Source of the DNA: Desulfobacteraceae bacterium Eth-SRB1
Lineage (GTDB): Bacteria > Desulfobacterota > Desulfobacteria > Desulfobacterales > ETH-SRB1
Assembly: GCA_004193555.1 (NCBI GenBank)
Contig: RPGP01000001.1
Location: 192,114 to 256,113 of the forward strand
Length of the DNA stretch: 64,000 nt
Direction of reading: 5' to 3'
Shown: piece after piece, positions 659 to 53,849 of the stretch
Numbering within the stretch: the stretch's first letter is position 1
Layout of the letters: the number at the start of each line of letters is the position of its first letter
Notes under the pieces: model-generated
Databases searched by the model: none
Told to the model about the DNA's origin: nothing
What the model saw: only the letters and a program-made list of their open reading frames with translations
Program-made: the position numbers and the translations under genes

Positions 659-798
659 ATGCCTAAAGTGAGCTAAAGTGTCTAAAGTGAGCTAAAGTTA
701 AGGTATGCGCCTTTGGCGCTGCCAATTTTATATAAAAGATGGAGCAAGGCGACTCATTAACTTTAGGCACTTTAGCTCACTTTAGGCACTCATAACTT
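659..798. repeat. CTAAAGT-type palindromic intergenic element (A-type), copy 1
   Basis: The left arm is gcctaaagtgagctaaagtgtctaaagtgagctaaagttaagg. The core contains the gcgcctttggcgc mini-hairpin and ggagcaaggcgac. The right arm is ttaactttaggcactttagctcactttaggcac. The element is near-identical to 8884-9047. Confidence 0.85.
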
Positions 799-3784: not shown

Positions 3785-3966
3785 AAAAGATGAACGTCCA
3801 ACATCGAACAATGAACGTCCAACATCGAATAATGAAACAAAACACCCAATGAGAAACAAATGTTCAGGGATATTTGGTTGCTGTTTTTCTGACCTCCGAC
3901 CTCTGTTTCTTTGTTTTTCCCATTCGATGTTCAATGTTGGACGTTCGATGTTCGATGTTCATTGTT
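3785..3966. repeat. GAACATC-heptamer palindromic intergenic element (B-type), copy 1
   Basis: The left arm is aaaagatgaacgtccaacatcgaacaatgaacgtccaacatcgaataatg. The right arm is cattcgatgttcaatgttggacgttcgatgttcgatgttcatt. The loop includes a short CCGACCT-type run. Confidence 0.85.
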
Positions 3967-5411: not shown

Positions 5412-5470
5412 TGGATTGATGATTGATGGAATCGCTTCGCTCTATCTTTTCAATCGACAATCATCAATCC
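5412..5470. repeat. GATTGATGA-type small hairpin with GCTTCGCT core
   Basis: The sequence is ggattgatgattgatgg-aatcgcttcgctc-...-tcgacaatcatcaatcc. The right arm overlaps the hypB stop codon. Confidence 0.7.
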
Positions 5471-8883: not shown

Positions 8884-9047
8884 CCACGGAGCTAAAGTAA
8901 CAAAGAAAGTTATAAGTGAGCTAAAGTGCCTAAAGTGAGCTAAAGTTAAGGTATGCGCCTTTGGCGCTGCCAATTCTATATAAAAAATGGAGCAAAGCGA
9001 CTCATTAACTTTAGGCACTTTAGCTCACTTTAGGCACTCGTAACTTT
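8884..9047. repeat. CTAAAGT-type palindromic element (A-type), copy 2
   Basis: The element is near-identical to 659-798 and is the reverse complement of 13461-13640. Confidence 0.85.
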
Positions 9048-11107: not shown

Positions 11108-11130
11108 CTTATATTTCTCCTTTTAAATAG

Positions 11131-11262
11131 TGCCTAAAGCGCCTAAAATATGTTAAAGTGCCTAAAGTTAAGGTATCGCTTCGCTCTGTTTTTTATATAA
11201 AATTAGCAAAATTCCATAACTTTAGGCACTTTAGCTCACTTTAGGCACTTGTAACTTTGCTT
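11131..11262. repeat. CTAAAGT-type palindromic element (A-type), copy 3
   Basis: The arms are gtgcctaaagcgcctaaaatatgttaaagtgcctaaagttaagg and taactttaggcactttagctcactttaggcac. The core is tcgcttcgctc. Confidence 0.8.
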
Positions 11263-11485: not shown

Positions 11486-11883
11486 AGTTACAAATGACTA
11501 AAGTGACTACTGTAAGTGCCTAAAGTGAGCTAAAGTATATTAAAGTGCCTAAAGTTGTGGTACGCCTTCGGCGTGTTAATTTTAAAGTTATAAGCGCCTA
11601 AGGTAATGTAGTGAACTACTGGCTATCTTTACTTCGATTTCTACAAAACTTTGACAGTCTCGTAAAAAGTCGAAAAATACCGTTTTTCGTCATTCCGGTA
11701 AAAACCGGAATCCAGTCTTTTCAAGTAGTTACAGAACATCTGGACTCCGGTTTTCACCGGAGTGACGACTTTTTACGAGTTCATCAACTTTAGCTCACTT
11801 GCAGTTTTCAAATAAGCAGCGCCGAAGGCGCATTCCTTAACTTTAGGCACTTTAATATACTTTAGGCACTTTAGCTCACTAAA
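11486..11883. repeat. composite A-type element: 4HB-gene deletion derivative with a nested TIR element
   Basis: The left arm and 5' region match 24696-24770. Bases 11607-11655 match the last ~50 nt of the 4HB gene at 25085-25134. The right arm matches 25176-25222. Confidence 0.8.
11659..11779. repeat. nested small element with 14-bp terminal inverted repeats CTCGTAAAAAGTCG / CGACTTTTTACGAG
   Basis: The 14-bp TIRs are perfect. Internal hairpins are attccggtaaaaaccggaat and ctccggttttcaccggag. Related ends occur at 22755-22880, 55026-55158 and 55925-55950. Confidence 0.7.
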
Positions 11884-13460: not shown

Positions 13461-13640
13461 GTTACGAGTGCCTAAAGTGAGCTAAAGTGCCTAAAGTTAA
13501 TGAGTCGCTTTGCTCCATCTTTTATATAGAATTGGCAGCGCCAAAGGCGCATACCTTAACTTTAGCTCACTTTAGGCACTTTAGCTCACTTGTAACTTTT
13601 TTTGTTACTTTAGCTTACTTTAAATCTCTGTGTTCTCCGT
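13461..13640. repeat. CTAAAGT-type palindromic element (A-type), copy in inverse orientation
   Basis: The element is the reverse complement of the 8884-9047 element, including the outer ccacgg...gttac flank. Confidence 0.85.
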
Positions 13641-14617: not shown

Positions 14618-14656
14618 TTTTTAGTATTTAGATTTAATCCTTACAAAGTTGTTTTG

Positions 14657-14795
14657 AAAGATGAACGTCCAACATCGAACATTGAACGTCGAACATCGAA
14701 TAATGATGTCGCTCCGCTCCGCCAGTTTATAAATTAGCAGAATACCTTATTCAACATTCGATGTTGGACGTTCGATGTTCGACGTTCATCTTTTT
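14657..14795. repeat. GAACATC-heptamer palindromic element (B-type), copy 2
   Basis: Arms built of gaacgtc/caacatc/gaacatt units flank the core aataatgatgtcgctccgctccgccagtttataaatt. The right end supplies the mutase stop codon. Confidence 0.85.
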
Positions 14796-16938: not shown

Positions 16939-17080
16939 TAAAAAGATGAACGTCCAACATTGAACATCGAACATCGAACGTCGAATAATGATGTCGCTCC
17001 GCTCCGCCAGTTTATAAATTGGCAAAATACCTTATTCAACATTCGATGTTGGACGTTCGATGTTCGATGTTCATTTTTTT
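16939..17080. repeat. GAACATC-heptamer palindromic element (B-type), copy 3
   Basis: The element is about 90 percent identical by eye to 14657-14795, including the core. Confidence 0.85.
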
Positions 17081-17548: not shown

Positions 17549-17689
17549 AACTAAAGTGCCTAAAGTGAGCTAAAGTGCCTAAAATGCCTAAAGTTAAGGA
17601 GTCGCTCCGCTCCGGTTGTTTCCAAATTGAGGAGCGAAGCGACAACAACATTCATCATTCGATGTTGGACGTTCGATGTTCATCTTTTT
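17549..17689. repeat. chimeric element: CTAAAGT arm + GCTYCGCT core hairpin + GAACATC arm
   Basis: The left arm is A-type and the right arm is B-type. The central 13-bp stem is gtcgctccgctcc/ggagcgaagcgac. The element is the reverse complement of 23045-23178. Confidence 0.85.
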
Positions 17690-17719: not shown

Positions 17720-17761
17720 AACACCTAACACTTAACACCTAACACTTAACACCTAACACTT
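17720..17761. repeat. 6 x heptamer array AACACCT/AACACTT
   Basis: Two heptamers alternate perfectly. The array is preceded by TAATCCTC octamers and abuts the aminotransferase stop codon. Confidence 0.85.
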
Positions 17762-19247: not shown

Positions 19248-19333
19248 ACCACTGAGATCACAGAGAACACAGAGAATTTTCTTTTTGTTTTTTTATATAT
19301 TATCCCTCTGTGGTCTCTGTGGGCTCTGTGGTT
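19248..19333. repeat. CACAGAG 9-mer hairpin
   Basis: accactgagatcacagagaacacagagaa pairs with ccctctgtggtctctgtgggctctgtggt. The hairpin ends on the tgt stop codon. Confidence 0.8.
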
Positions 19334-20453
19334 AATCCTTCTTTTTAGCGGCTAAACTGTTATAAAATTTCTCTCTGAACACCTCAAACTTATCATCAAT
19401 TATTGCCTTTCGCATATTCTTCATCAAGCCGACATAATAGTTTATATTATGAATTGTATTTAAACGATAGGCAAGCAGTTCTTTTGACATATAAAGGTGG
19501 CGCAGATAAGCCTTGGAATAATTTCTGCACGTATAACATGTACACCCCTGCTCCACAGGCTCTTTATCATACTTGAACCGTGAATTAGATATGTTTATCG
19601 TGCCGCAGCTTGTAAACAACTGCCCGTTCCTGGCATTTCTGGTGGGCATAACACAATCAAACATGTCTGCGCCAAGGGCAACAAGCTCGACAATATCCTC
19701 AGGAGTTCCCACGCCCATGATGTATTTGGGCTTATTATCAGGCAGCTCAGGCAGCGTAAAATCCGCAATATCAAGCATTATATCTTTTGGTTCGCCCACG
19801 CTCAACCCGCCGATTGCATAGCCGCTGAAACCGATGTCAACGAGAGCTTCAACAGACATCTCCCTTAGATCCTTGAACATCCCACCCTGAACAATACCGA
19901 AAAGAGCGGATTTTGAACCATTATCCCATGCTGTTTTACATTTTTCAGCCCAGCTTGTGGTAAGTTTAAGGGCGTACATTGCTTCATCTCTGCTTGACGG
20001 ATATGCAATGCAATTATCGAGGCACATCATTATATCAGAACCGAGACAGTTTTGTATTTCAACCGCCTTTTCAGGTGTCAGCAAATGGCTCGATCCATCG
20101 ATATGAGATTGAAATGAAACCCCCTCGGGAGATATTTTCGCAAGCTTTGCAAGGGAAAATATCTGAAATCCGCCGCTATCCGTCAGAATTGGCCTGTTCC
20201 AGTTCATAAATCTGTGCAAGCCGGAAAAGAGGCTTATCACATCGCAACCCGGCCTTAAGTACAAATGGTATGTATTCCCCAAAATTATACTGGCTCCGGC
20301 GCCCGCAAGCTCTTCCGGAGACACCGATTTCACGCTTGCAAGAGTGCCCACAGGCATAAACACAGGTGTTTCAATCACACCGTGAGAAGTCTGCAACAGC
20401 CCCGCCCGGGCTCTTGTCTTTTTAGATTTTGCTGTTATCTTAAAATTGAACAT
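19332..20453 (-). CDS. tgt: tRNA-guanine transglycosylase
   Basis: The ORF has TPVFMPVGT and DSGGFQ motifs and the zinc site CxCxxC...H. The start is set at MFNFKI. Confidence 0.9.
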   Translation of the reverse strand: MFNFKITAKSKKTRARAGLLQTSHGVIETPVFMPVGTLASVKSVSPEELAGAGASIILGNTYHLYLRPGCDVISLFSGLHRFMNWNRPILTDSGGFQIFSLAKLAKISPEGVSFQSHIDGSSHLLTPEKAVEIQNCLGSDIMMCLDNCIAYPSSRDEAMYALKLTTSWAEKCKTAWDNGSKSALFGIVQGGMFKDLREMSVEALVDIGFSGYAIGGLSVGEPKDIMLDIADFTLPELPDNKPKYIMGVGTPEDIVELVALGADMFDCVMPTRNARNGQLFTSCGTINISNSRFKYDKEPVEQGCTCYTCRNYSKAYLRHLYMSKELLAYRLNTIHNINYYVGLMKNMRKAIIDDKFEVFREKFYNSLAAKKKD

Positions 20454-20557
20454 GTTTAAATAATTTGGTTCACGGTTCAAGGTTCACGGTTCTCCAACTT
20501 CTAAACCCTGAACCCACAGTTACATAAACTTGACCATTATCTGAATAACGAAGATAT

Positions 20558-20685
20558 TAAAAGATGAACGTCCAACATCGAACATCGAATAATGAAATCG
20601 CTTCGCTCCGCCGGTTTATAAATTGGCAGAATACCTTATTCAAAATTCGACGTTGGACGTTCGATGTTCGATGTTTATTTTTTTC
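20558..20685. repeat. GAACATC-heptamer palindromic element (B-type), copy 4
   Basis: The core is aataatgaaatcgcttcgctccgccggtttataaatt. The element is followed by the shared module cagcgctactgctggg...gctacgatcc, also present at 22441-22490. Confidence 0.85.
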
Positions 20686-20776
20686 AGCGCTACTGCTGGG
20701 AACAGAGCCCCCACGCTACGATCCCTAATCCTCAAATCCCTTAATCCCCTAACACCTGACACTTAACACCTAACAC

Positions 20777-21838
20777 TTATATTATAACCATCGCATCCCC
20801 ATAACTGTAAAACCTGTACCTTTCCTTTATCGCCTCTTTGTATGCATTCAGAATACTTTCCCGTCCGGCAAAAGCCGATACAAGCATCAGCAGGGTTGAT
20901 TCAGGTAAATGAAAATTTGTAACCATTGCGTCTATAACTTTAAACCTGTAGCCGGGATATATAAAAAGATCGCAGTGTCCACCACCGGAAGCAATATGTC
21001 CGTTTTTATCCGATGCATACTCCAGAGTTCGCACACATGTTGTCCCTACAGCCACTATTCGGCTTCCCCGCTCTTTTGCAGTGTTGATTAACTCTGCGCT
21101 TTTCTTAGAAATATGAAACTGCTCGGAATGAATCATGTGATCCCTGATATCGCTCTCCCTTACAGGCAAAAAGGTGCCATATCCTACATGGAGGGTAATT
21201 TCTGCTGTCTTGACTCCAACACCCTTTATTTTTTCAATAAGACTTTCAGAAAAATGGAGACCTGCCGTAGGCGCCGCAATCGCCCCTTTTTCACTGGCAT
21301 ATACTGTCTGGTAAGACCTCTTGTCATCGCAGGCAGAGCCTTTGCCGTTTCTTTTAATATAAGGCGGAAGCGGCACATTCCCTATCCTGTAAAGCAGGGT
21401 TTCAAAATCTCCATCATATAAAAACCTTACATTAAAATATCCATTTCTAACTTCGAGCACTTCGGCTTTTAATCCCTGATCAAAAAAAAGCAGCGCTCCT
21501 GGTTTCGGACGTTTTGAAGCCTTTATAAGACATTCACATATAAATTCGCCGTTAGCCTCCCTTTTTACAGCGCCTCCGGCATAGTCAAGAATAAGGAGTT
21601 CCACCTTTCCGCCGGTTTCCTTGTTTCCAAAAAGACGTCCGGGGATAACCTCCGTATTGTTTATAACCAGTATGTCCGACGGCCGCAAAAGGTCGGAAAT
21701 TTCATAAAATAAATGATGGGACACTTCTCCTGTCCTGCGGCGCAAAAACAACAGCCTCGACCGGTCTCTCTGGTCTGCCGGCTTTTGAGCAATAAACTCT
21801 TCAGGAAAATCGTAGTTATAGTCAATAAGTGAGTACAT
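20777..21838 (-). CDS. queA: S-adenosylmethionine:tRNA ribosyltransferase-isomerase
   Basis: The ORF has DYNYDFPEEFIAQKP, PLPPYI and GTT.VRTLE motifs. The start is set at MYSLIDY; upstream codons are repeat arm. Confidence 0.9.
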   Translation of the reverse strand: MYSLIDYNYDFPEEFIAQKPADQRDRSRLLFLRRRTGEVSHHLFYEISDLLRPSDILVINNTEVIPGRLFGNKETGGKVELLILDYAGGAVKREANGEFICECLIKASKRPKPGALLFFDQGLKAEVLEVRNGYFNVRFLYDGDFETLLYRIGNVPLPPYIKRNGKGSACDDKRSYQTVYASEKGAIAAPTAGLHFSESLIEKIKGVGVKTAEITLHVGYGTFLPVRESDIRDHMIHSEQFHISKKSAELINTAKERGSRIVAVGTTCVRTLEYASDKNGHIASGGGHCDLFIYPGYRFKVIDAMVTNFHLPESTLLMLVSAFAGRESILNAYKEAIKERYRFYSYGDAMVII

Positions 21839-21845
21839 AATATTT

Positions 21846-22437
21846 AAAAGATGAACGTCCAACATCGAACATTGAACATCCAACATCGAATAATGCTATC
21901 GCTTCGCTCCTCAATTTATTTCTGTTTCTTTTCAGCCGTTCTGATACTCGTAACGAAAATCTTAATTAATTCCTCTGTTTCCTGTAAAATATCATCTAAT
22001 AGTTCAGGTTTTTTAATTAAAGGCACACGCTGAATAAGTTTTAACCATCGCTGGCTCTCCCTGAGTTCCTTTAATGAGATACGAAGCTTATGGATAAAGT
22101 CCTTTGGGGACTCCGCTGCCTGAGCTTCACCATGGTTTGGATAAGGTGAAGTTCCCGATCTTAACAATTGGCCAGCAACATGGTTGCCTGTTCTGGTATT
22201 TGGCATCTGTTCAACGATCTTTATTATTCGCACCGAATACTCGAGCAGCCTTTCTTCCAGATCATATGTTTGTTTCTTCATCTTTTCCCATTCAACGTTC
22301 GATGCTCATCCATTTGGATTGTTGATTGATGATTTTCTCGTTCCCACGCTCTTGCGTGTGAATTCATATTTGAAGGAGCGAAGCGACATCATCATTCAAA
22401 ATTCGATGTTGGACGTTCGATGTTCGATGTTCATTTT
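21846..22437. mobile_element. B-type hairpin element carrying a four-helix-bundle gene in its loop
   Basis: The left arm is 21846-21894 plus core tcgcttcgctcctc. The right arm is 22371-22437 (gaaggagcgaagcgac plus cgatgttggacgttcgatgttcgatgttcat). ORF 21916-22281 lies between them. Confidence 0.7.
21916..22281 (-). CDS. four helix bundle protein (23S rRNA intervening sequence protein family)
   Basis: The 121-aa ORF has motifs LLRSGTS, KDFIHKLRISLKELRE and W characteristic of the TIGR02436/PF05635 family. Confidence 0.85.
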   Translation of the reverse strand: MKKQTYDLEERLLEYSVRIIKIVEQMPNTRTGNHVAGQLLRSGTSPYPNHGEAQAAESPKDFIHKLRISLKELRESQRWLKLIQRVPLIKKPELLDDILQETEELIKIFVTSIRTAEKKQK

Positions 22438-22496
22438 TTTCAGCGCTACTGCTGGGGACAGAGCCCCCGTGCTACGATCCTTAATTCCCTAATCCC

Positions 22497-22682
22497 TCAA
22501 TCCCTTCCCAAATATATCAGCGCTAAGCCTGTAAGCATAAGCACAAAACCGAACCAGCGGAGAGAGCTGTCCGGTATTTCAAGAACCTTTTGCACCCAGA
22601 ATTTCATCTTTTCCGGAAATGCAAAATACGGCAGCCCCTCAACTATCATCACCATTCCAAGTACACACAAGAAAAATTCCAT
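22497..22682 (-). CDS. DUF2065-like small membrane protein
   Basis: The 61-aa ORF has two TM segments and an EGLPYFAFP motif. Confidence 0.6.
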   Translation of the reverse strand: MEFFLCVLGMVMIVEGLPYFAFPEKMKFWVQKVLEIPDSSLRWFGFVLMLTGLALIYLGRD

Positions 22683-22960
22683 TTAATTCCTCTTTTTTAT
22701 CACGAAAACACGAAAGTACGAAAACACGAAGAAAAGCATAAAAAAGTATGATGAACCCGTAAAAAGTCATTCCAGAACCGCATCAAGCCCCACCCCTTCC
22801 CTTTCCTCTTCGTGGCCTTCGTGTTCTTCGTGGTACAACACACTCTGTGGTAAAAAATCGACTTTATACGAAACCGTCAAAATTTTATTTTATAAACTTA
22901 TGCACCCTGTTTTGTCAAAACAAAATGGCTTGACTATGCGCCGCATTAAGATATAAATTG

Positions 22961-23040
22961 TTCAGGAGTTCAGGAGTTCAGGAGTTCAGGAGTTCAGGAG
23001 TTCAGGAGTTCAGGGGTTCAGGGGTTCAGGGGTTCAGGGG
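22961..23040. repeat. 10-unit octamer tandem array (6 x TTCAGGAG then 4 x TTCAGGGG)
   Basis: A direct count gives 80 nt with period 8. Confidence 0.9.
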
Positions 23041-23044
23041 ACTG

Positions 23045-23178
23045 AAAAAGATGAACATCGAACGTCCAACATCGAATGATGAATGTTGTTGTCGCTTCGC
23101 TCCTCAATTTGGAAACAAACTGAGCGAAGCGACTCATTAACTTTAGGCACTTTAGCTCACTTTAGGCACTTTTTAACT
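23045..23178. repeat. chimeric element: GAACATC arm + GCTTCGCT core hairpin + CTAAAGT arm
   Basis: The first ~78 nt are identical to the reverse complement of 17549-17689. The core stem is gtcgcttcgctc/gagcgaagcgac. Confidence 0.85.
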
Positions 23179-23264: not shown

Positions 23265-24695
23265 ATGGAATTTGAATCTGTTATAGGGCTTGAAATACAT
23301 GCCCAGCTAAAGACAAAAACAAAAATCTTCTGCGGCTGTTCAACAAAATTCGGAGCCCCTCCCAATACCCATACCTGTCCGGTATGTCTTGGCATGCCCG
23401 GGGTGCTCCCTGTGCTCAACAAAAAGGTTGTTGAATACAGTTTGCGCATGGCGCTTGCCACAAATTGCAAAATCAACAGGCAAAGCAGATTTGCCAGGAA
23501 AAACTACTTTTATCCTGACCTTCCAAAAGGGTACCAGATCTCCCAGTATGAACTGCCGATTGCGGAAAACGGGCATGTCGATATTGAAATCAACAGCCAT
23601 AAAAAAAGGATCGGAATCACAAGAATTCACATGGAAGAGGATGCAGGCAAACTGACTCACAATCCTGACAGGCCGCTTAGTATGGTCGATTTCAACAGGA
23701 CAGGGGTTCCTCTTATTGAGATAGTCAGCGAGCCGGATCTAAGATCCCCTGAAGAAGCCGGGGCATACTTAAGGCAGCTCAGGTCGATTGTTCGTTATCT
23801 CAGTATATGCGACGGCAACATGGAGGAGGGAAGCTTCAGGTGCGATGCAAACGTATCGATCAGGCCGATTGGCTCTGAAACTTTCGGCACGCGCGCAGAG
23901 CTTAAAAATTTAAATTCCTTTAAACATGTTGAAAAGGCGCTGCAATACGAAATAACAAGGCAAAAAGAAATTTTATCTGACGGCGGTGAGGTAATCCAGG
24001 AAACAAGGCTATGGAGCCCTGATAAAAACAGGACGACTTCAATGCGATCAAAGGAGGAGGCGCACGATTACAGGTATTTTCCAGACCCTGATCTTTTGCC
24101 TCTTGTAATTGACGATACATGGATTAATAATGTAAAAAAAAGCCTGCCCGAACTGCCGGATGAAAGAAAAATCCGTTTTATAAACAAATTTTTCCTTTCT
24201 TCAAACGACGCCGAAGCATTGACATCCAGCCGGGAGCTTGCAGAATATTTTGAGGAATGTGTAAAACAATTTCCGAATCCAAAACAGGTTTGCAACTGGG
24301 TCATGGGGGAGCTGCTCGGACTATTGAATGCAGAAGAAAAAACCATAAATGAATCCCCGGTTTCAACCGGCGATCTTGCCGGGCTGCTCAAATTAATCGA
24401 CAAAGGGGTCATAAGCGGCAAAATCGCAAAAACGGTATTTGAAGAAATGGCAAAAACAGGCCGTGCCCCTGAAAAGATTGTAAAGGAAAAACAGCTTGTA
24501 CAGGTCACGGACGTATCTGCCATTGAAGAGGTGGTATCAAAGATACTTTCAAACAACCCCAAAGAGGTGGAGGCTTACAAAAACGGCAAAACCAAACTTA
24601 TGGGTTTCTTCGTCGGCCAGGTTATGAAAGAAACAAGGGGCAAGGCCAATCCGAAGATCGTGAATGAAGTCCTGAAAAAGAGGCTGATAAATTAA
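23265..24695 (+). CDS. gatB: Asp-tRNA(Asn)/Glu-tRNA(Gln) amidotransferase subunit B
   Basis: The N-terminus is [15 protein letters not shown] and the [10 protein letters not shown] motif is present. The ORF is full length at 476 aa. Confidence 0.95.
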
Positions 24696-25222
24696 GTGCC
24701 TAAAATGCCTAAAGTATGTTAAAGTGCCTAAAGTTGTGGTACGCCTTCGGCGTGCTAATTTTAAAATTATAGGATGAAAGGTGGATAACAAAAAATTTGC
24801 TGCAGCGCTTGAAAAACGAACTCGTGAATTTGCGGTGCGGATTATTCACTTATCTTCGAAATTGCCGAATACACATGAAGGCAGAGTAATACGGAATCAG
24901 ATTACTAAATCCGGTACATCTATAGGCGCTAATTATCGTGAGGCAAATCATTCCAGAAGCAAAGCAGATTTTAAAAATAAAATCAAGATTTCTGAAAGTG
25001 AAGCAAGCGAAACTCAATATTGGATTGAAGTTGTTGTAGAGGCAAAAATGTTGCCATGGAAACAGGTAAAAGCAGAACACAAAGAATGTGGCGAACTATT
25101 GGCCATCTTTACTTCGATTTCTGCAAAACTTTAACTCATTTACAACTTATAACTTTAAAATAGACAGAATACATTAACTTTAGGCATTTTAGGCACTTTA
25201 ATATACTTTAGGCACTTTAGTT
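24696..25222. mobile_element. A-type hairpin element carrying a four-helix-bundle gene in its loop
   Basis: The element starts on the base after the gatB stop. The left arm is 24696-24745 and the right arm is 25176-25222; they are complementary over ~30 bp in best register. ORF 24781-25134 lies inside. Confidence 0.7.
24781..25134 (+). CDS. four helix bundle protein (23S rRNA intervening sequence protein family)
   Basis: The 117-aa ORF has a GTG start and motifs QITKSGTSIGANYREA, DFKNKIKISESEASET and YW. Confidence 0.85.
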   Translation: MDNKKFAAALEKRTREFAVRIIHLSSKLPNTHEGRVIRNQITKSGTSIGANYREANHSRSKADFKNKIKISESEASETQYWIEVVVEAKMLPWKQVKAEHKECGELLAIFTSISAKL

Positions 25223-30243: not shown

Positions 30244-30271
30244 TCCAGTAATTACAATTTGATTTTCTTTT

Positions 30272-30351
30272 TTCGTGTTTTCGTGTTTTCGTGTTTTCGT
30301 GTTTTCGTGTTTTCGTGTTTTCGTGTTTTCGTACTTTCGTGCTTTCGTGAT
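30272..30351. repeat. 10-unit octamer tandem array (7 x TTCGTGTT + 3 variants)
   Basis: A direct count gives period 8. The array lies between the convergent DUF5615 and mutL genes. Confidence 0.9.
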
Positions 30352-30452: not shown

Positions 30453-32330
30453 CTAAACTACTCTCCCAAACAATTTCTCAATTTCTCCTTTGCTCCACCT
30501 TATCCATGTAGGCCGGCCATGCGGACAGTGGGAAGAATTTTTGCATTTATCAAGCTGGTCGAGAAGACCTTTCATCTCTTTATCGGAAAGCGGATGGTTT
30601 GCCCTGATTGCCCCGTGGCAGGCCATGAGTATCAGGCATTTATCAATGGCTTTTTCAATGCCGGGCCCGAAACCTGTTTCTGCAATTTTTTCCGTAATCT
30701 CGATAACGAGCGGCCTGATCTCCCTGCCGGCAAGAACCGCCGGCACAGACTTTACCACAAAGGTATCTGATCCAAAGGGCTCTATTTCAAGACCGGTCTC
30801 CTTTAAATCAGGGATCAGCTTTTCAAGTATGCCTGCCTCTTTATAGCCCAGGTCAACTGTTTCAGGAACAAGCAGTCTCTGGGATTCTGTTTTCCCTGCC
30901 ATGGATCTGTTTTTCAGATGCTCATAAACAATTCTCTCATGTGCTGCATGCTGATCAATAATCAGAAGCTCCTTGTCCGACTCGCAGAGTATATATGTGT
31001 CATGAAACTGGCCGATTACCCGCAAATCGCCAACACCTTTTTTATCCCAGATTTGCGCCTGTTCGGAGGCTGGAGGTCGGAGGTCAGAGGCCAGAGGTCG
31101 GATGCCAGAGGTCGGAGATCGGAGATCGGAGGTCAGGGGTCGGCGGTCGGCGGTCGGCGGTCGGAAGTCGGAGATCAGAGGTCGGAGGTCAGAGGTCAGG
31201 GGTCGGAGGCCAGAGGTCGGAGGTCGGAAGTCGGAAGTCGGATCGGAAAAGGGTGTTGGAAAGCCGCTGTAACGGGAAGCAGGCTCGGAAACGGAAAGCC
31301 TGTCCTGCACGGACAATGGACCGGCGCTCCATCCTGCCCTTTCAGCGATTTCCAGTCCCCTTTTTACAGCTTGTTTTACAGCATAATGAACCATGTTCTG
31401 CTGCGCAAACCTGACTTCCTGCTTTGCCGGATGAACATTTACATCCACGCTGTCAAATGGCAGGTCAATAAAAAGAACCGCCACGGGGAACCGCCCTTTC
31501 ATCAATCTTTGTTCATATCCTTCAAACAGGGCATGCGAAATAATCCTGTCCCGCACAAACCTTCCGTTTACATACACATAGATTCCCCGGGATGTAGTCC
31601 GGTCAACTCCGGGAGATGATATCCAGCCGGCCACAGAAATATTATCGTCATCAAATTTTATCCTGTGCAACCCCCTTTTTAAACCGCTGCCGAGGACATC
31701 CACGACCCTGTCAAAAGGATCTGTTGCAACAGGCCGGCCTTTGACAAGCCTTCCGTTGTGATTCAGCAAAAATTTCACATCAGGCCTGCCCAGACCGATG
31801 CTCGAAATAATATCTGCGATATGCCCGAACTCTGTATTGACGCTCTTTAAAAACTTTCGTCTTGCAGGCACATTAAAGAAAAGCTGCTTTACTGTAACCA
31901 TGCTGCCTGTGGGCGCGCCGATTTGAGAAACCTTTTTAATCTTTCCTCCATGGATTAGTATCTCGGCGCCTGCATCAGAGGCCTTATCCCTCGTAACAAG
32001 GGAAAATTTTGATACCGAAGCAATGCTCGGCAGCGCCTCGCCCCTGAAGCCGAGACTCTTTATGGAAAACAGATCGTCGTTTTTGTAAATCTTACTGGTC
32101 GCATACCTCTCCAGGGAAAGAAGCGCATCGTCTTTGTTCATGCCGCAGCCGTTGTCTGAAACACGAATTAATGACCTGCCGCCGTTTTCAATCTCGATTG
32201 CTATCCGGCTGCTGCCCGCATCCAGCGCATTTTCGACAAGCTCCTTTACAACAGAAGCCGGCCTCTCCACGACTTCGCCCGCAGCTATCCTGTTTGAAAG
32301 GTTTTCGGGAAGTATTCTTATTTTCGACAT
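30453..32330 (-). CDS. mutL: DNA mismatch repair endonuclease MutL
   Basis: The N-terminal GHKL ATPase (IAAGEVVERPASVVKELVENALDAG) and the C-terminal endonuclease motif DQHAAHERIVYE are present. The linker carries a 7-aa periodic insert. Confidence 0.9.
   Translation of the reverse strand: MSKIRILPENLSNRIAAGEVVERPASVVKELVENALDAGSSRIAIEIENGGRSLIRVSDNGCGMNKDDALLSLERYATSKIYKNDDLFSIKSLGFRGEALPSIASVSKFSLVTRDKASDAGAEILIHGGKIKKVSQIGAPTGSMVTVKQLFFNVPARRKFLKSVNTEFGHIADIISSIGLGRPDVKFLLNHNGRLVKGRPVATDPFDRVVDVLGSGLKRGLHRIKFDDDNISVAGWISSPGVDRTTSRGIYVYVNGRFVRDRIISHALFEGYEQRLMKGRFPVAVLFIDLPFDSVDVNVHPAKQEVRFAQQNMVHYAVKQAVKRGLEIAERAGWSAGPLSVQDRLSVSEPASRYSGFPTPFSDPTSDFRPPTSGLRPLTSDLRPLISDFRPPTADRRPLTSDLRSPTSGIRPLASDLRPPASEQAQIWDKKGVGDLRVIGQFHDTYILCESDKELLIIDQHAAHERIVYEHLKNRSMAGKTESQRLLVPETVDLGYKEAGILEKLIPDLKETGLEIEPFGSDTFVVKSVPAVLAGREIRPLVIEITEKIAETGFGPGIEKAIDKCLILMACHGAIRANHPLSDKEMKGLLDQLDKCKNSSHCPHGRPTWIRWSKGEIEKLFGRVV
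31064..31245. repeat. ~26 tandem heptamers (plus strand YRGAGGT; coding strand ACCTCYG) inside the mutL linker
   Basis: A direct count was made. The array is translated as eight SDLRPPT-like 7-aa units. The same unit type occurs intergenically at 3889-3905 and 18975-19000. Confidence 0.9.
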
Positions 32331-36410: not shown

Positions 36411-36547
36411 TAAAAGATGAACGTCGAACATCGAACGTTCAACATCGAATTTTGAATAAGGAATTCTACCAATTTATAAACTGGCGGAGCGAAGCGATTT
36501 CATCATTCGATGTTCAATGTTCGACGTTCGATATTCGATGTTCAAAA
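36411..36547. repeat. GAACATC-heptamer palindromic element (B-type) with core in inverse orientation
   Basis: The core aatttataaactggcggagcgaagcgatttc is the reverse complement of the B2/B3 core. Confidence 0.8.
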
Positions 36548-53670: not shown

Positions 53671-53697
53671 TTTTGAAAATAAATTGCTTGATTATTC

Positions 53698-53778
53698 AAC
53701 TGCCGCTCCCTACGCTGGTATAATCCAGGTCAGGTTCAAAGGGTATTTTCTCAGCCCTGTCAGGCACCCCCGCATATT
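53698..53778 (-). ncRNA. TPP (THI-box) riboswitch
   Basis: The minus-strand sequence is gggggtgcctgacagggctgagaaaataccctttgaacctgacctggattataccagcgtagggagcgg. It contains the conserved GGGGUGC, CUGAGA, ACCCUUUGAACCUGA and UACCAGCGUAGGGA elements. Confidence 0.9.
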
Positions 53779-53849
53779 TTTAATAATCTATCCGGCTTTA
53801 TCTATATAATCAAGCAATAATTTTACAACAGCTCTTTCTGTTTTCCGGG

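Follow-up and report, generated by a model that had tools for sequence, protein, structure and literature searches.

ORF-bearing intervening sequences (IVSs) of rRNA have long been an oddity, and those of 23S rRNA are inserted in helix 9, 25 or 45. To our knowledge, their protein family, PF05635/TIGR02436, has been assigned no biology in 30 years, excepting Avd of the diversity-generating retroelements (DGRs), and we know of no nuclease or recombinase chemistry for PF05635. STRR1-3 are intergenic tandem heptamers found in heterocystous cyanobacteria.

The ORF-bearing 23S rRNA IVSs of Leptospira, Coxiella burnetii, Xanthomonas and Brucella occur sporadically, show evidence of horizontal transfer and are regarded as selfish (PMC4990558). 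In the Coxiella IVS, RNase III cleaves within a terminal stem of 28 bp, and the ATG of the S23p gene is immediately preceded by 3-4 tandem GACAGAT heptamers (PMC4990558). Genes and repeats are also associated in the RAYT system, in which a gene is flanked by REP repeats of its own family and the repeat family changes with the gene lineage (PMC3116915). Avd is a basic pentameric four-helix bundle that acts on structured nucleic acid (PMC10053308, PMC6182149).

We analyzed a 64,000-nucleotide stretch of the Desulfobacteraceae bacterium Eth-SRB1 genome (hereafter, the window), in which a PF05635/TIGR02436 gene lies between inverted arrays of GAACATC-type heptamers. Relatives of the focal protein are termed family 1 (80 genome loci from many phyla: Desulfobacterota, PVC phyla and others), and relatives of a second paralog in the window are termed family 2 (80 metagenome loci). 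The features of the focal cassette, in gene order, and the second cassette are as follows.

22440-22504, minus strand: ~50-nt module (cagcgctactgctgggg...gctacgatcc) and CCCTAATC-type array, external to the 5' arm; duplicate at 20684-20748
22397-22439, minus strand: outer 5' arm, in gene sense AAAAAAATGAAC followed by 4-5 GAACATC-type heptamers (TRF, 22402-22432)
22374-22396, minus strand: 5' core box and linker, TCGCTTCGCTCC in gene sense (plus strand 22375-22386), pairing with the 3' box
22310-22373, minus strand: spacer between outer and inner 5' arms, with GATTGAT-type repeats and a small hairpin (22345-22360)
22282-22309, minus strand: inner degenerate 5' arm reaching the start codon (ATGAGCATCGAACGTTGAATGGGAAAAG abutting ATG), the canonical arm position in relatives (compare L008, L010 and L013)
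21916-22281, minus strand: ORF of 121 aa, PF05635/TIGR02436 four-helix-bundle protein of the 23S rRNA intervening-sequence family, pI 9.5
21894-21915, minus strand: 3' core box and linker, GGAGCGAAGCGA in gene sense (plus strand 21899-21910), beginning 5 nt past the stop codon
21846-21893, minus strand: 3' arm, complement of the heptamer array, terminus GTTCATCTTTT
24694-25220, plus strand: second cassette, CTAAAGTGN nonamer arms (24694-24732 and 25177-25220) around a PF05635 ORF (24781-25134)

The 121-codon ORF matched PF05635 (E 1e-13), TIGR02436 (E 1e-24) and PDB 2RLD (E 1e-15, 5 chains); PF05635 is its sole domain, and no transposase or other catalytic domain was found in it. The second paralog (117 aa, plus strand) also matched PF05635 (E 8e-21); CTAAAGTGC is the array unit cognate to it. 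The first-pass annotation had placed the focal gene between complementary GAACATC-heptamer arms, had asked whether 13-nt core boxes pair, and had noted a ~50-nt module repeated beside a gene-less element; all three points were borne out. The arms (21846-21911 and 22374-22439) form a 66-nt inverted repeat, 80% complementary and separated by 462 nt, that encloses the ORF. The core box TCGCTTCGCTCC occurs exactly at 21899-21910 on the plus strand and 22375-22386 on the minus strand, the match reaching 13 nt when the sequence is read. In the RNA fold of 21836-22450 (minus strand), arms and boxes form a long stem with a loop of ~460 nt (dG -180 kcal/mol, z -6.85), and the arms are paired in both the MFE and the centroid folds; the fold of the second cassette has a z of -4.9. 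The module lies in a direct repeat in which 22394-22504 matches 20638-20748 with 91% identity over 111 nt.

Both sequence motifs are frequent in the window: the core box has 14 matches at up to one mismatch (0.17 expected), and the heptamer arm pattern has 45 (0.04 expected). The GATTGAT repeat also borders a core box at 5414-5470. The inner 5' arm is an older, degenerate arm held by the focal copy. A small upstream ORF within the 5' arm (ATGAACATCGAAC...) was dropped as a candidate, because gains and losses of the 7-nt unit change its frame.

The cassette resembles the 23S rRNA IVSs in its protein family (S23p/PF05635), in the bracketing of the ORF by terminal inverted repeats (a ~28-bp stem there and the 66-nt arms here) and in being an element transcribed within a host RNA. 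As the tandem heptamers of the Coxiella IVS run into the start codon, so the heptamer arrays here approach the gene, the inner end of the arm lying ~9-17 nt from the ATG in relatives. In contrast, the cassette is hosted by an mRNA operon (DUF2065 gene-queA-tgt) and not by rRNA. The cassette sits in a same-direction gene string with the DUF2065 gene on one side, queA on the other and tgt further on, and the queA start codon (21836-21838) is 7 nt past the end of the 3' arm. No rRNA match was found anywhere in the window, and thus the cassette is not in a 23S rRNA helix; no Rfam family was found on any element, either at the gathering threshold or at E<=5. Whereas the Coxiella ORF is decaying, the present proteins are under strong purifying selection (dN/dS of 0.089 among family-1 relatives and 0.061 in family 2), and the arms are still recognizable at dS 0.6-1.55. 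The present elements also differ in having many copies per genome together with ORF-less derivatives, and in that RNase III cleavage is putative for them.

Avd and PF05635 proteins are homologous, both being basic, pentameric four-helix bundles (PMC10053308, PMC6182149), and the focal protein could accordingly be the remnant or accessory of a DGR, serving as Avd for a nearby reverse transcriptase. However, the gene is solitary apart from the arrays that flank it, and neither a reverse transcriptase nor a template/variable repeat pair was seen. Its neighbors in the window are the DUF2065 gene, queA, gatB and tgt, and no recurrent partner gene emerged among 141 flank proteins of 79 loci, the biggest cluster having 6 members. 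We regard a DGR origin as very improbable.

Our analysis of ~190 relatives revealed that gene and arms form a widespread unit; PF05635/TIGR02436 is a very large family, in which ~8000 close relatives were scored for the focal subfamily alone. Heptamer arms surround family-1 genes at ~70 of 77 testable loci, and CTAAAGTGN nonamer arms surround family-2 genes at ~75 of 80 metagenome loci. A flanking inverted-repeat score of at least 35 was obtained for 85-86% of PF05635 genes but for 3-4% of other ORFs at the same loci. The first-pass annotation had argued that the gene-in-loop arrangement is not coincidental, and these numbers agree. The hairpin density of this genome gives the opposite idea, namely that two independent arm insertions happened to bracket a small gene, some initial appeal: the window holds at least 14 such elements, and even queA is bracketed by complementary arms, each from a different neighboring element. 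Nevertheless, the recurrence of the bracket in ~145 of ~157 loci of unrelated genomes, with subfamily-specific units, together with the control ORFs, rules out coincidence, whose probability we consider negligible.

Other 7-9-nt units accompany distant family members in nine phyla. They were seen in 4 distant members of the fetched loci and at 18 of 20 plasmid-borne genes from Cyanobacteria, Gemmatimonadota, Bacteroidota, Spirochaetota, Bacillota and Chloroflexota. The cyanobacterial plasmid genes lie between inverted heptamer arrays with units such as GGTGACA, GGGAGTA, CTGGTCA and TAATTCG. They may be akin to STRRs, likewise intergenic tandem heptamers able to form hairpins, although STRRs have been described as repeats without an associated gene and their units differ in sequence; no literature linking STRRs to PF05635 was found. 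Arm length is held at ~28-36 nt in both families despite the unequal unit length. The idea that the pentamer corresponds to five repeats was rejected, since there are 4-5 units per arm in family 1, 3-4 in family 2 and up to ~17 in cyanobacterial copies; the stem length fits better.

The arms are subfamily-specific and not exchangeable, because each protein subfamily keeps its own repeat type across phyla and complementarity between arms of different families does not rise above noise (15 vs. 42-49). The earlier suggestion that arm modules are exchanged around a conserved core and cargo therefore fails for the genes. It holds in part within the focal genome, where one interior module is common to the ORF-less hairpins with heptamer and with nonamer arms, and where two elements are hybrids. 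The core box, which had been taken as a general feature, is not one: its 3' copy is present in 11 of 71 family-1 loci (e.g., L003 and L008) and its 5' copy in 0 of 71, and the 63 family-2 loci gave one loose-pattern match per strand upstream and none downstream, with no consistent presence. Since the box is an optional 3' module and the 5' box is absent from the other loci, the paired core is a peculiarity of the focal copy. Each arm matches its own partner slightly better than the partners of other loci (48.9 vs. 41.6), and co-evolution by locus is modest, the own partner ranking in the top 10% at 25 of 73 loci. Because arm mismatches amount to 10-17% and the own partner is barely favored, the repeat sequence may carry more weight than the stem.

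The distribution of the cassettes indicates that gene and arms together form an apparently mobile, horizontally spreading unit, in line with the mobility proposed in the first-pass annotation. Family-1 cassettes occupy non-orthologous sites, with 75 distinct flank contexts in 79 loci, and are multi-copy, copies within a genome being 92-98% identical compared with a median of 76% between genomes. The window cassette and that of L163 share a common junction and 95.9% nucleotide identity; their third-position identity is 92.6%, whereas that of the flanking queA and DUF2065 genes is 63-65%, and hence the cassette is far younger than its flanks (third-position ~93% vs. ~63%). L161 and L162 contain cassette remnants only, the element between queA and tgt is absent in L161, where the two genes are 2 nt apart, and L163 has a clean empty site for the second cassette, with gatB abutting the next gene. 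Empty, remnant and ORF-deleted states were thus all found. A phage vehicle was considered and rejected: there were no relatives in IMG/VR and 2 matches in 50,697 phage records, and the one phage-like homologue inspected had no arms.

Cassettes are nearly always downstream of a co-directional gene (62 of 63 and 57 of 63 loci in two locus sets), and their operon settings include housekeeping, CRISPR, restriction-modification and efflux genes. This placement, the strong purifying selection on the protein, the constancy of arm length and the T-run that follows many hairpins would be expected of a domesticated host system, in which the arrays are operon-punctuating hairpins (for processing, stability or termination, as REP/BIME or STRR elements) and the protein is a trans-acting binder that regulates itself through its own arrays. 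However, such a system is difficult to reconcile with non-orthologous sites, a cassette far younger than its flanks, near-identical copies at different loci of one genome, and close relatives whose sites are empty or hold decaying remnants. It also conflicts with the cross-phylum spread of the cassette protein at 65-97% identity, as QueA reaches only ~66-70% in related orders. We consider domestication unlikely.

The window also contains the following elements without the ORF.

20559-20683, minus strand: ORF-less family-1 derivative in the queA-tgt gap, with 5' arm, 5'-UTR module, core box and 3' arm
14655-14793, minus strand: ORF-less family-1 hairpin; more copies at 16940-17078 (minus strand) and 36412-36545 (plus strand)
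3790-3966: element with family-1 hairpin arms but a different interior
663-790, plus strand: ORF-less nonamer-arm hairpin; more copies at 8914-9038, 11129-11250 and 13467-13591
11495-11874: nonamer-arm element with non-coding cargo
23045-23172, no strand assigned: hybrid of heptamer arm, core-box hairpin and nonamer arm; mirror image at 17551-17681

The ORF-less hairpins derive from the cassette by deletion of the ORF; in the alignment, the interior of the 20559-20683 element is the 5' UTR of L001 fused to the 3' end of L003. The interior of the ORF-less elements contains TTGAAT-17 nt-TATAAA, also present directly before the ATG in L001, and a sigma-70 scan made no call on this motif, whose final T is absent. 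In L001-type variants, it is possible that this candidate module between arm and ATG is promoter-like and, if it were used, the 5' arm would lie outside the mRNA.

ORF-less derivatives outnumber ORF copies in the window, and elements are nested or lie side by side, as is the case for MITEs, which likewise have terminal inverted repeats, an intergenic location and internal-deletion derivatives more numerous than coding copies. REPIN-RAYT systems offer a similar likeness, in that a gene is flanked by its own repeats, which are also scattered intergenically as hairpin inverted doublets, with lineage-specific pairing. The cassette could accordingly be an element at the DNA level. The arrays would then be terminal inverted repeats in double-stranded or hairpin DNA, and the pentamer, alone or with a host enzyme, would direct excision and insertion or gene conversion; the RNA stem would be incidental, and the ORF-less hairpins would be MITE/REPIN-like non-autonomous copies mobilized in trans. 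The match between subfamily and repeat mirrors RAYT-REPIN pairing (PMC3116915), the outer termini (TGAAAAAGATGAAC...GTTCATCTTTCA) are conserved, and conservation of the repeat sequence extends over the whole family instead of reflecting compensation within single loci. Arm mismatches in the sense RNA showed no excess of G.U over A.C (154 vs. 137, p 0.35; 45 vs. 33, p 0.21), which, like the weak orientation bias of the ORF-less hairpins in the window (7 vs. 3), counts against an RNA-stem reading.

A DNA-level element would, however, require chemistry for which PF05635 offers no known nuclease or recombinase. RAYTs are relatives of the IS200/IS605-like HUH tyrosine transposases, single-copy and mostly vertically inherited, whereas the present protein is a 120-aa four-helix bundle, and its cassettes occur in several copies and pass horizontally between genomes. 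In place of single palindromes, the arms here consist of tandemly repeated 7-9-nt units. MITEs differ from the present elements in transposase domain and target-site duplication, neither of which was detected here, and in that the inverted repeats here are tandem arrays of varying copy number. In 28 parsed loci, no direct repeat was evident outside the termini, although A/T-rich ends may mask a 2-4-nt duplication. Co-orientation with upstream genes and the precedent of rRNA IVSs favor an RNA-level life, but co-orientation could simply reflect the expression of a promoterless ORF. Taken together, an element at the DNA level is possible but doubtful.

We lean towards an IVS-type selfish cassette, kin of the ORF-bearing 23S rRNA IVSs but residing in mRNA operons. 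The unit would be a PF05635/TIGR02436 gene that has no promoter of its own and lies between inverted heptamer arrays, each with 4-5 units. It would be transcribed by read-through from the upstream gene, because its neighbors on either side, the DUF2065 gene and queA, are read in the same direction as the cassette gene. In the transcript, the arms would pair around the ORF-bearing loop, the 13-nt box lengthening the stem in the focal copy. The folds of both cassettes and the similar arm length in the two families argue for such a stem. By analogy with the rRNA elements, RNase III would cut the stem and release the cassette RNA from the cistrons on either side, which would make insertion between host genes or within rRNA tolerable. 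Purifying selection maintains the basic protein, which forms pentamers, and the repeat unit that accompanies it differs from one subfamily to the next. Most likely, the arrays of a unit are recognized by its own protein, which helps the unit to be copied to new intergenic sites or into arms already present. ORF-less hairpin derivatives would be copied likewise. We infer RNase III processing at the locus, binding of the protein to the arms and copying of the unit.

A broader proposal is more tentative. TIGR02436 proteins may be sequence-specific binders of their own 7-9-nt arrays, forming transposase-free mobile cassettes that seed intergenic hairpins in Desulfobacterota, Cyanobacteria (STRRs), PVC phyla and others. 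The rRNA IVSs might then be copies that landed in rRNA, and the Avd of DGRs a domesticated offshoot.

No prior description of the association between repeats and gene, or of these repeat sequences, was found in the searchable literature, outside of which most subscription journals lie. Our study gives the PF05635/TIGR02436 family a genomic identity, that of a promoterless passenger in operons that is bracketed by subfamily-specific inverted tandem arrays and is spreading. It also accounts for the “CRISPR-associated” status of these genes in guilt-by-association screens, because they wedge between cas6/cas4 and cmr2/cmr3. Reading of its own repeat by the pentamer and excision of the cassette by RNase III become directly testable. 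Furthermore, the abundant short-tandem-repeat hairpins of intergenic regions, perhaps the cyanobacterial STRRs among them, may have originated from such cassettes.

Our analysis located the first cassette between the DUF2065 gene and queA, in a minus-strand gene string that continues to tgt and is divergent from gatB. The complementary arms that the first-pass annotation had described around the 121-codon ORF were recovered by an inverted-repeat search (66 nt each, 80% complementary), and each arm consists of a GAACATC/GAACGTC/CAACATC heptamer array and, after it, the box TCGCTTCGCTCC or the complementary sequence. The nearest solved structure to the 121-aa protein is 2RLD, with five chains in the deposition. 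The 64-kb window contains only two PF05635 ORFs, those of cassettes 1 and 2.

Cassettes and neighbouring genes in the window
19332-20480, minus strand: tgt
20777-21838, minus strand: queA
21846-21911: cassette 1 arm
21916-22281, minus strand: 121-codon ORF, PF05635 "23S rRNA-intervening sequence protein" (TIGR02436 "four helix bundle protein")
22282-22309, minus strand (gene sense): short, degenerate inner 5' arm, ATGAGCATCGAACGTTGAATGGGAAAAG, abutting the ATG
22374-22439: cassette 1 arm
22497-22682, minus strand: DUF2065 gene
23265-24695, divergent from this gene string: gatB
24781-25134, plus strand: second paralog, PF05635, bounded by ACTTTAGGC/CTAAAGTGC nonamer arrays

Outward of the inner 5' arm lie a 64-nt spacer and then the box and outer arm, whose pairing partners are on the 3' side; this outer segment complements the common 3' module GGAGCGAAGCGA-CATCATTATTCGATG exactly. 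The box had been proposed as a conserved core, which did not hold among the relatives of the 121-aa protein (family 1). Since it stands on the 3' side in only 11 of 71 family 1 loci and on the 5' side in none, the paired box and outer 5' arm are a local elaboration of this copy, and the 5' side looks as though the 3' side had served as the source for rebuilding it, or as though it had recombined with an ORF-less element. In 63 loci with relatives of the second paralog (family 2), the box showed no consistent presence, with one loose-pattern match per strand upstream and none downstream. Only 7 nt separate the 3' arm (GTTCATCTTTTAAATATT, then ATG; window 21836-21850) from the queA start codon, and no Shine-Dalgarno-like sequence is present; thus the cassette end supplies the translation-initiation region of queA. 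L163, a relative sharing the window synteny, shows the same cassette-queA junction.

The gene-plus-arms unit is widespread. Thousands of near-identical relatives (85-94% identity) of the 121-aa protein exist, mainly on tiny metagenome contigs. When each species was represented by one genome, scanning yielded 380 relatives, and the best 80 of these (64-97% identity) came from Desulfobacterales, Desulfatiglandales and Syntrophobacterales, and also from Phycisphaerae, Lentisphaerae, Verrucomicrobia/Akkermansia, Kiritimatiellota, Nitrospirota and other groups. Mis-binning may affect some of the short contigs, but among the PVC cases are contigs of 57-101 kb. Inverted heptamer arrays like those of cassette 1 surround the gene in about 70 of the 77 testable family 1 loci, scoring 40-94, compared with maxima of about 20-28 after shuffling. 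The canonical 5' part reads tgaaaaaGATGAAC ATCGAAC ATCGAAC GTCCAAC ATCGAAT nTTGAAT GGGAAAAG ATG, and past the stop codon the unit closes with ATTCGATGTTGGACGTTCGATGTTCGATGTTCATCTTTt; among the 28 loci with parsable termini, most have the 5' terminus 50 nt away from the start codon. Arrays of the nonamer CTAAAGTGN flank about 75 of 80 family 2 metagenome loci (69-81% identity). Inverted-repeat flanks accompany 85-86% of PF05635 genes versus 3-4% of other ORFs at the same loci, which bears out the earlier view that the gene-in-loop arrangement is not coincidental.

Distant family members carry other units at the fetched loci (ATTTGTGA, CGAAATC, GTTGTCA, TAGTGAT). Inverted arrays on both sides also occur at 18 of 20 annotated plasmid PF05635 genes from Cyanobacteria, Gemmatimonadota, Bacteroidota, Spirochaetota, Bacillota and Chloroflexota, with units including GGTGACA, GGGAGTA, GGGTGTA, CTCTGCC, GGAGATA, GGGAAAA, GGAGGGCA, GATTAGT, CCAGTGA, TAATTCG and GATTTTA. 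The two exceptions retain the 3' array alone; an ISL3 transposase gene lies immediately upstream in L168, and a transposase gene about 550 nt upstream in L167. In L174, an unverified phage-like contig of human faecal origin, the homologue at 2462-2842 is without flanking arrays (score 20); therefore, the arm rule is general but not universal. The arms had also been considered exchangeable, and this was contradicted by their scores of 42-49 against own-family 3' arms and 15, which is noise, against those of the other family. No other feature accompanies each protein subfamily as faithfully as its arms do.

The suggested link to mobility was strengthened by comparison with related genomes, which revealed non-orthologous sites, a young cassette and empty sites. 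Family 1 occupies 75 distinct flank contexts among 79 loci. Three relatives share the window synteny. L163 (QueA 76% identical) has a canonical cassette in the same place, the DUF2065-queA junction; its ORF shows 95.9% DNA identity to that of the window and 92.6% identity at third codon positions, versus 63-65% third-position identity for queA and the DUF2065 gene. The sole cassette remainder is the box and 3' arm in L161 (QueA 85%) and a vestige of the arm in L162 (QueA 87%). The queA-tgt gap is 2 nt in L161, while in the window elements are stacked over about 300 nt at this position; in L163, gatB adjoins the next gene directly, while the window carries cassette 2 at that junction. Within-genome copies at different loci are 92-98% identical in six of seven pairs, compared with a between-genome median of 76%.

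Adjacent intergenic regions have had their elements reshuffled, and recombination between arms may have been the cause. A segment of about 85 nt, ttcgttattcagataatggtcaag...gaaccgtgaacc, is a GGTTCAC-type hairpin that lies 5' of tgt in the window (20480-20560) and 5' of queA in L161 (2230-2520). In L161 (about 2310-2345) and L163 (about 3880-3925), small GC-rich palindromic inserts that differ from each other interrupt the box GGAGCG/AAGCGA at one shared point, and the box may be an insertion hotspot.

Further elements in the window
14655-14793, 16940-17078, 20559-20683, 36412-36545: ORF-less hairpins
17551-17681, 23045-23172: mirror-image hybrids of nonamer arm, core-box hairpin and heptamer arm
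19250-19276/19306-19332, 22701-22730/22808-22833, 20467-20492, 17720-17761, 20723-20779: further short-tandem-repeat families
22960-23038: GTTCAGGA x10
30270-30349: TTTTCGTG x10
31063-31242: TCGGAGG x26
53690-53781, minus strand: TPP riboswitch (RF00059, 70 bits), the sole Rfam family at gathering score in the window

Aligned with the cassettes, the four ORF-less hairpins join a 5' arm and 5'-UTR module of the type in L001 to a box and 3' arm of the type in L003, both related loci, and are ORF-deletion derivatives; across the ORF-less hairpins of the window, orientation is only weakly biased (7 versus 3). In the hybrids, the core-box hairpin is TCGCTCCGCTCC...GGAGCGAAGCGA with an 18-nt loop, and only the boxes can pair, the arms being from different families. 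Nonamer arms at 11495-11874 enclose about 285 nt of non-coding cargo with a nested palindromic element (gtcattccgg...ccggaatcc). Inverted copies of this element type surround a 96-aa GIY-YIG gene in L162 (4190-4611), which is another gene-in-hairpin family. The further repeat families (CACAGAGAA/CTCTGTGGT, CACGAAAA/CTTCGTG, GGTTCAC, AACACCT, CCCTAATC), several of which form inverted pairs that enclose no ORF, may be orphan arms whose cognate genes, of other four-helix-bundle subfamilies, lie outside the window. The long pure arrays far exceed the 4-5-unit arms, and TCGGAGG x26 lies inside the span of a long ORF (30453-32330).

The closest known system is the ORF-bearing 23S rRNA intervening sequence (IVS). 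In Coxiella, three or four tandem GACAGAT heptamers precede the S23p ORF, and a 28-bp terminal-inverted-repeat stem closes the IVS and is cleaved there by RNase III, at the first repeat; an old proposal from Leptospira work regards IVSs as mobile elements whose ORF serves mobility (PMC4990558). In the window cassette these parts recur in the same order, with the same predicted fold. We thus take it to be an IVS-type cassette carried on mRNA, from which RNase III would probably cut its RNA; such cutting would explain the tolerance of cassettes inside operons. Arms measure about 28-36 nt in both families despite different unit lengths, which suits a double-stranded RNA stem. Arm mismatches show no bias of G.U over A.C, and compensation between the two arms of one locus is weak. 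Both points argue against a purely RNA-level role, and action of arms and protein at the DNA level therefore keeps substantial weight. At the system level, RAYT genes with their REPINs (PMC3116915) are a close parallel. We found no nuclease, no evident target-site duplication (28 loci with parsed termini) and no partner gene (79 loci). The homologous Avd, a pentameric barrel with positive charge, acts together with structured RNA (PMC10053308, PMC6182149), and the cassette protein is basic (pI 9.5-9.7). Together with the subfamily-specific arms, these properties suggest that the protein recognises the arrays of its own cassette.

The dN/dS ratios of 0.089 (dS 0.6) in family 1 and 0.061 (dS 1.55) in family 2 indicate that the PF05635 protein is functional; the arms are still recognisable at divergences that saturate synonymous sites. 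The upstream neighbour is co-directional in 62 of 63 family 1 and 57 of 63 family 2 loci, at a median gap, arm included, of 111 and 64 nt, respectively. PF05635 genes are wedged between partner genes in L164, L170, L172, L177, L178, L179, L180 and L183, splitting cas6/cas4, cmr2/cmr3, hsdS/hsdR, helicase/N6-methylase and DUF1156/Swt1-HEPN pairs and separating RND pump subunits, which in the annotated plasmid cases are an adaptor and its permease. Because of the co-directional neighbour and the wedged positions within operons, the cassette ORF appears to lack a promoter of its own and to depend on read-through for expression.

IVSs with S23p ORFs, the Coxiella heptamers, the multi-copy TIGR02436 family and STRR repeats were known before. 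In the searchable full-text literature, which leaves most subscription journals outside, we found no rule of subfamily-specific inverted arrays bracketing non-rRNA PF05635 genes across phyla, and no description of ORF-less derivatives or of cassettes younger than their flanks. PF05635 had also appeared in CRISPR association screens, and the wedged positions probably explain its scoring as CRISPR- or defence-associated (PMC3936711, PMC10910872).
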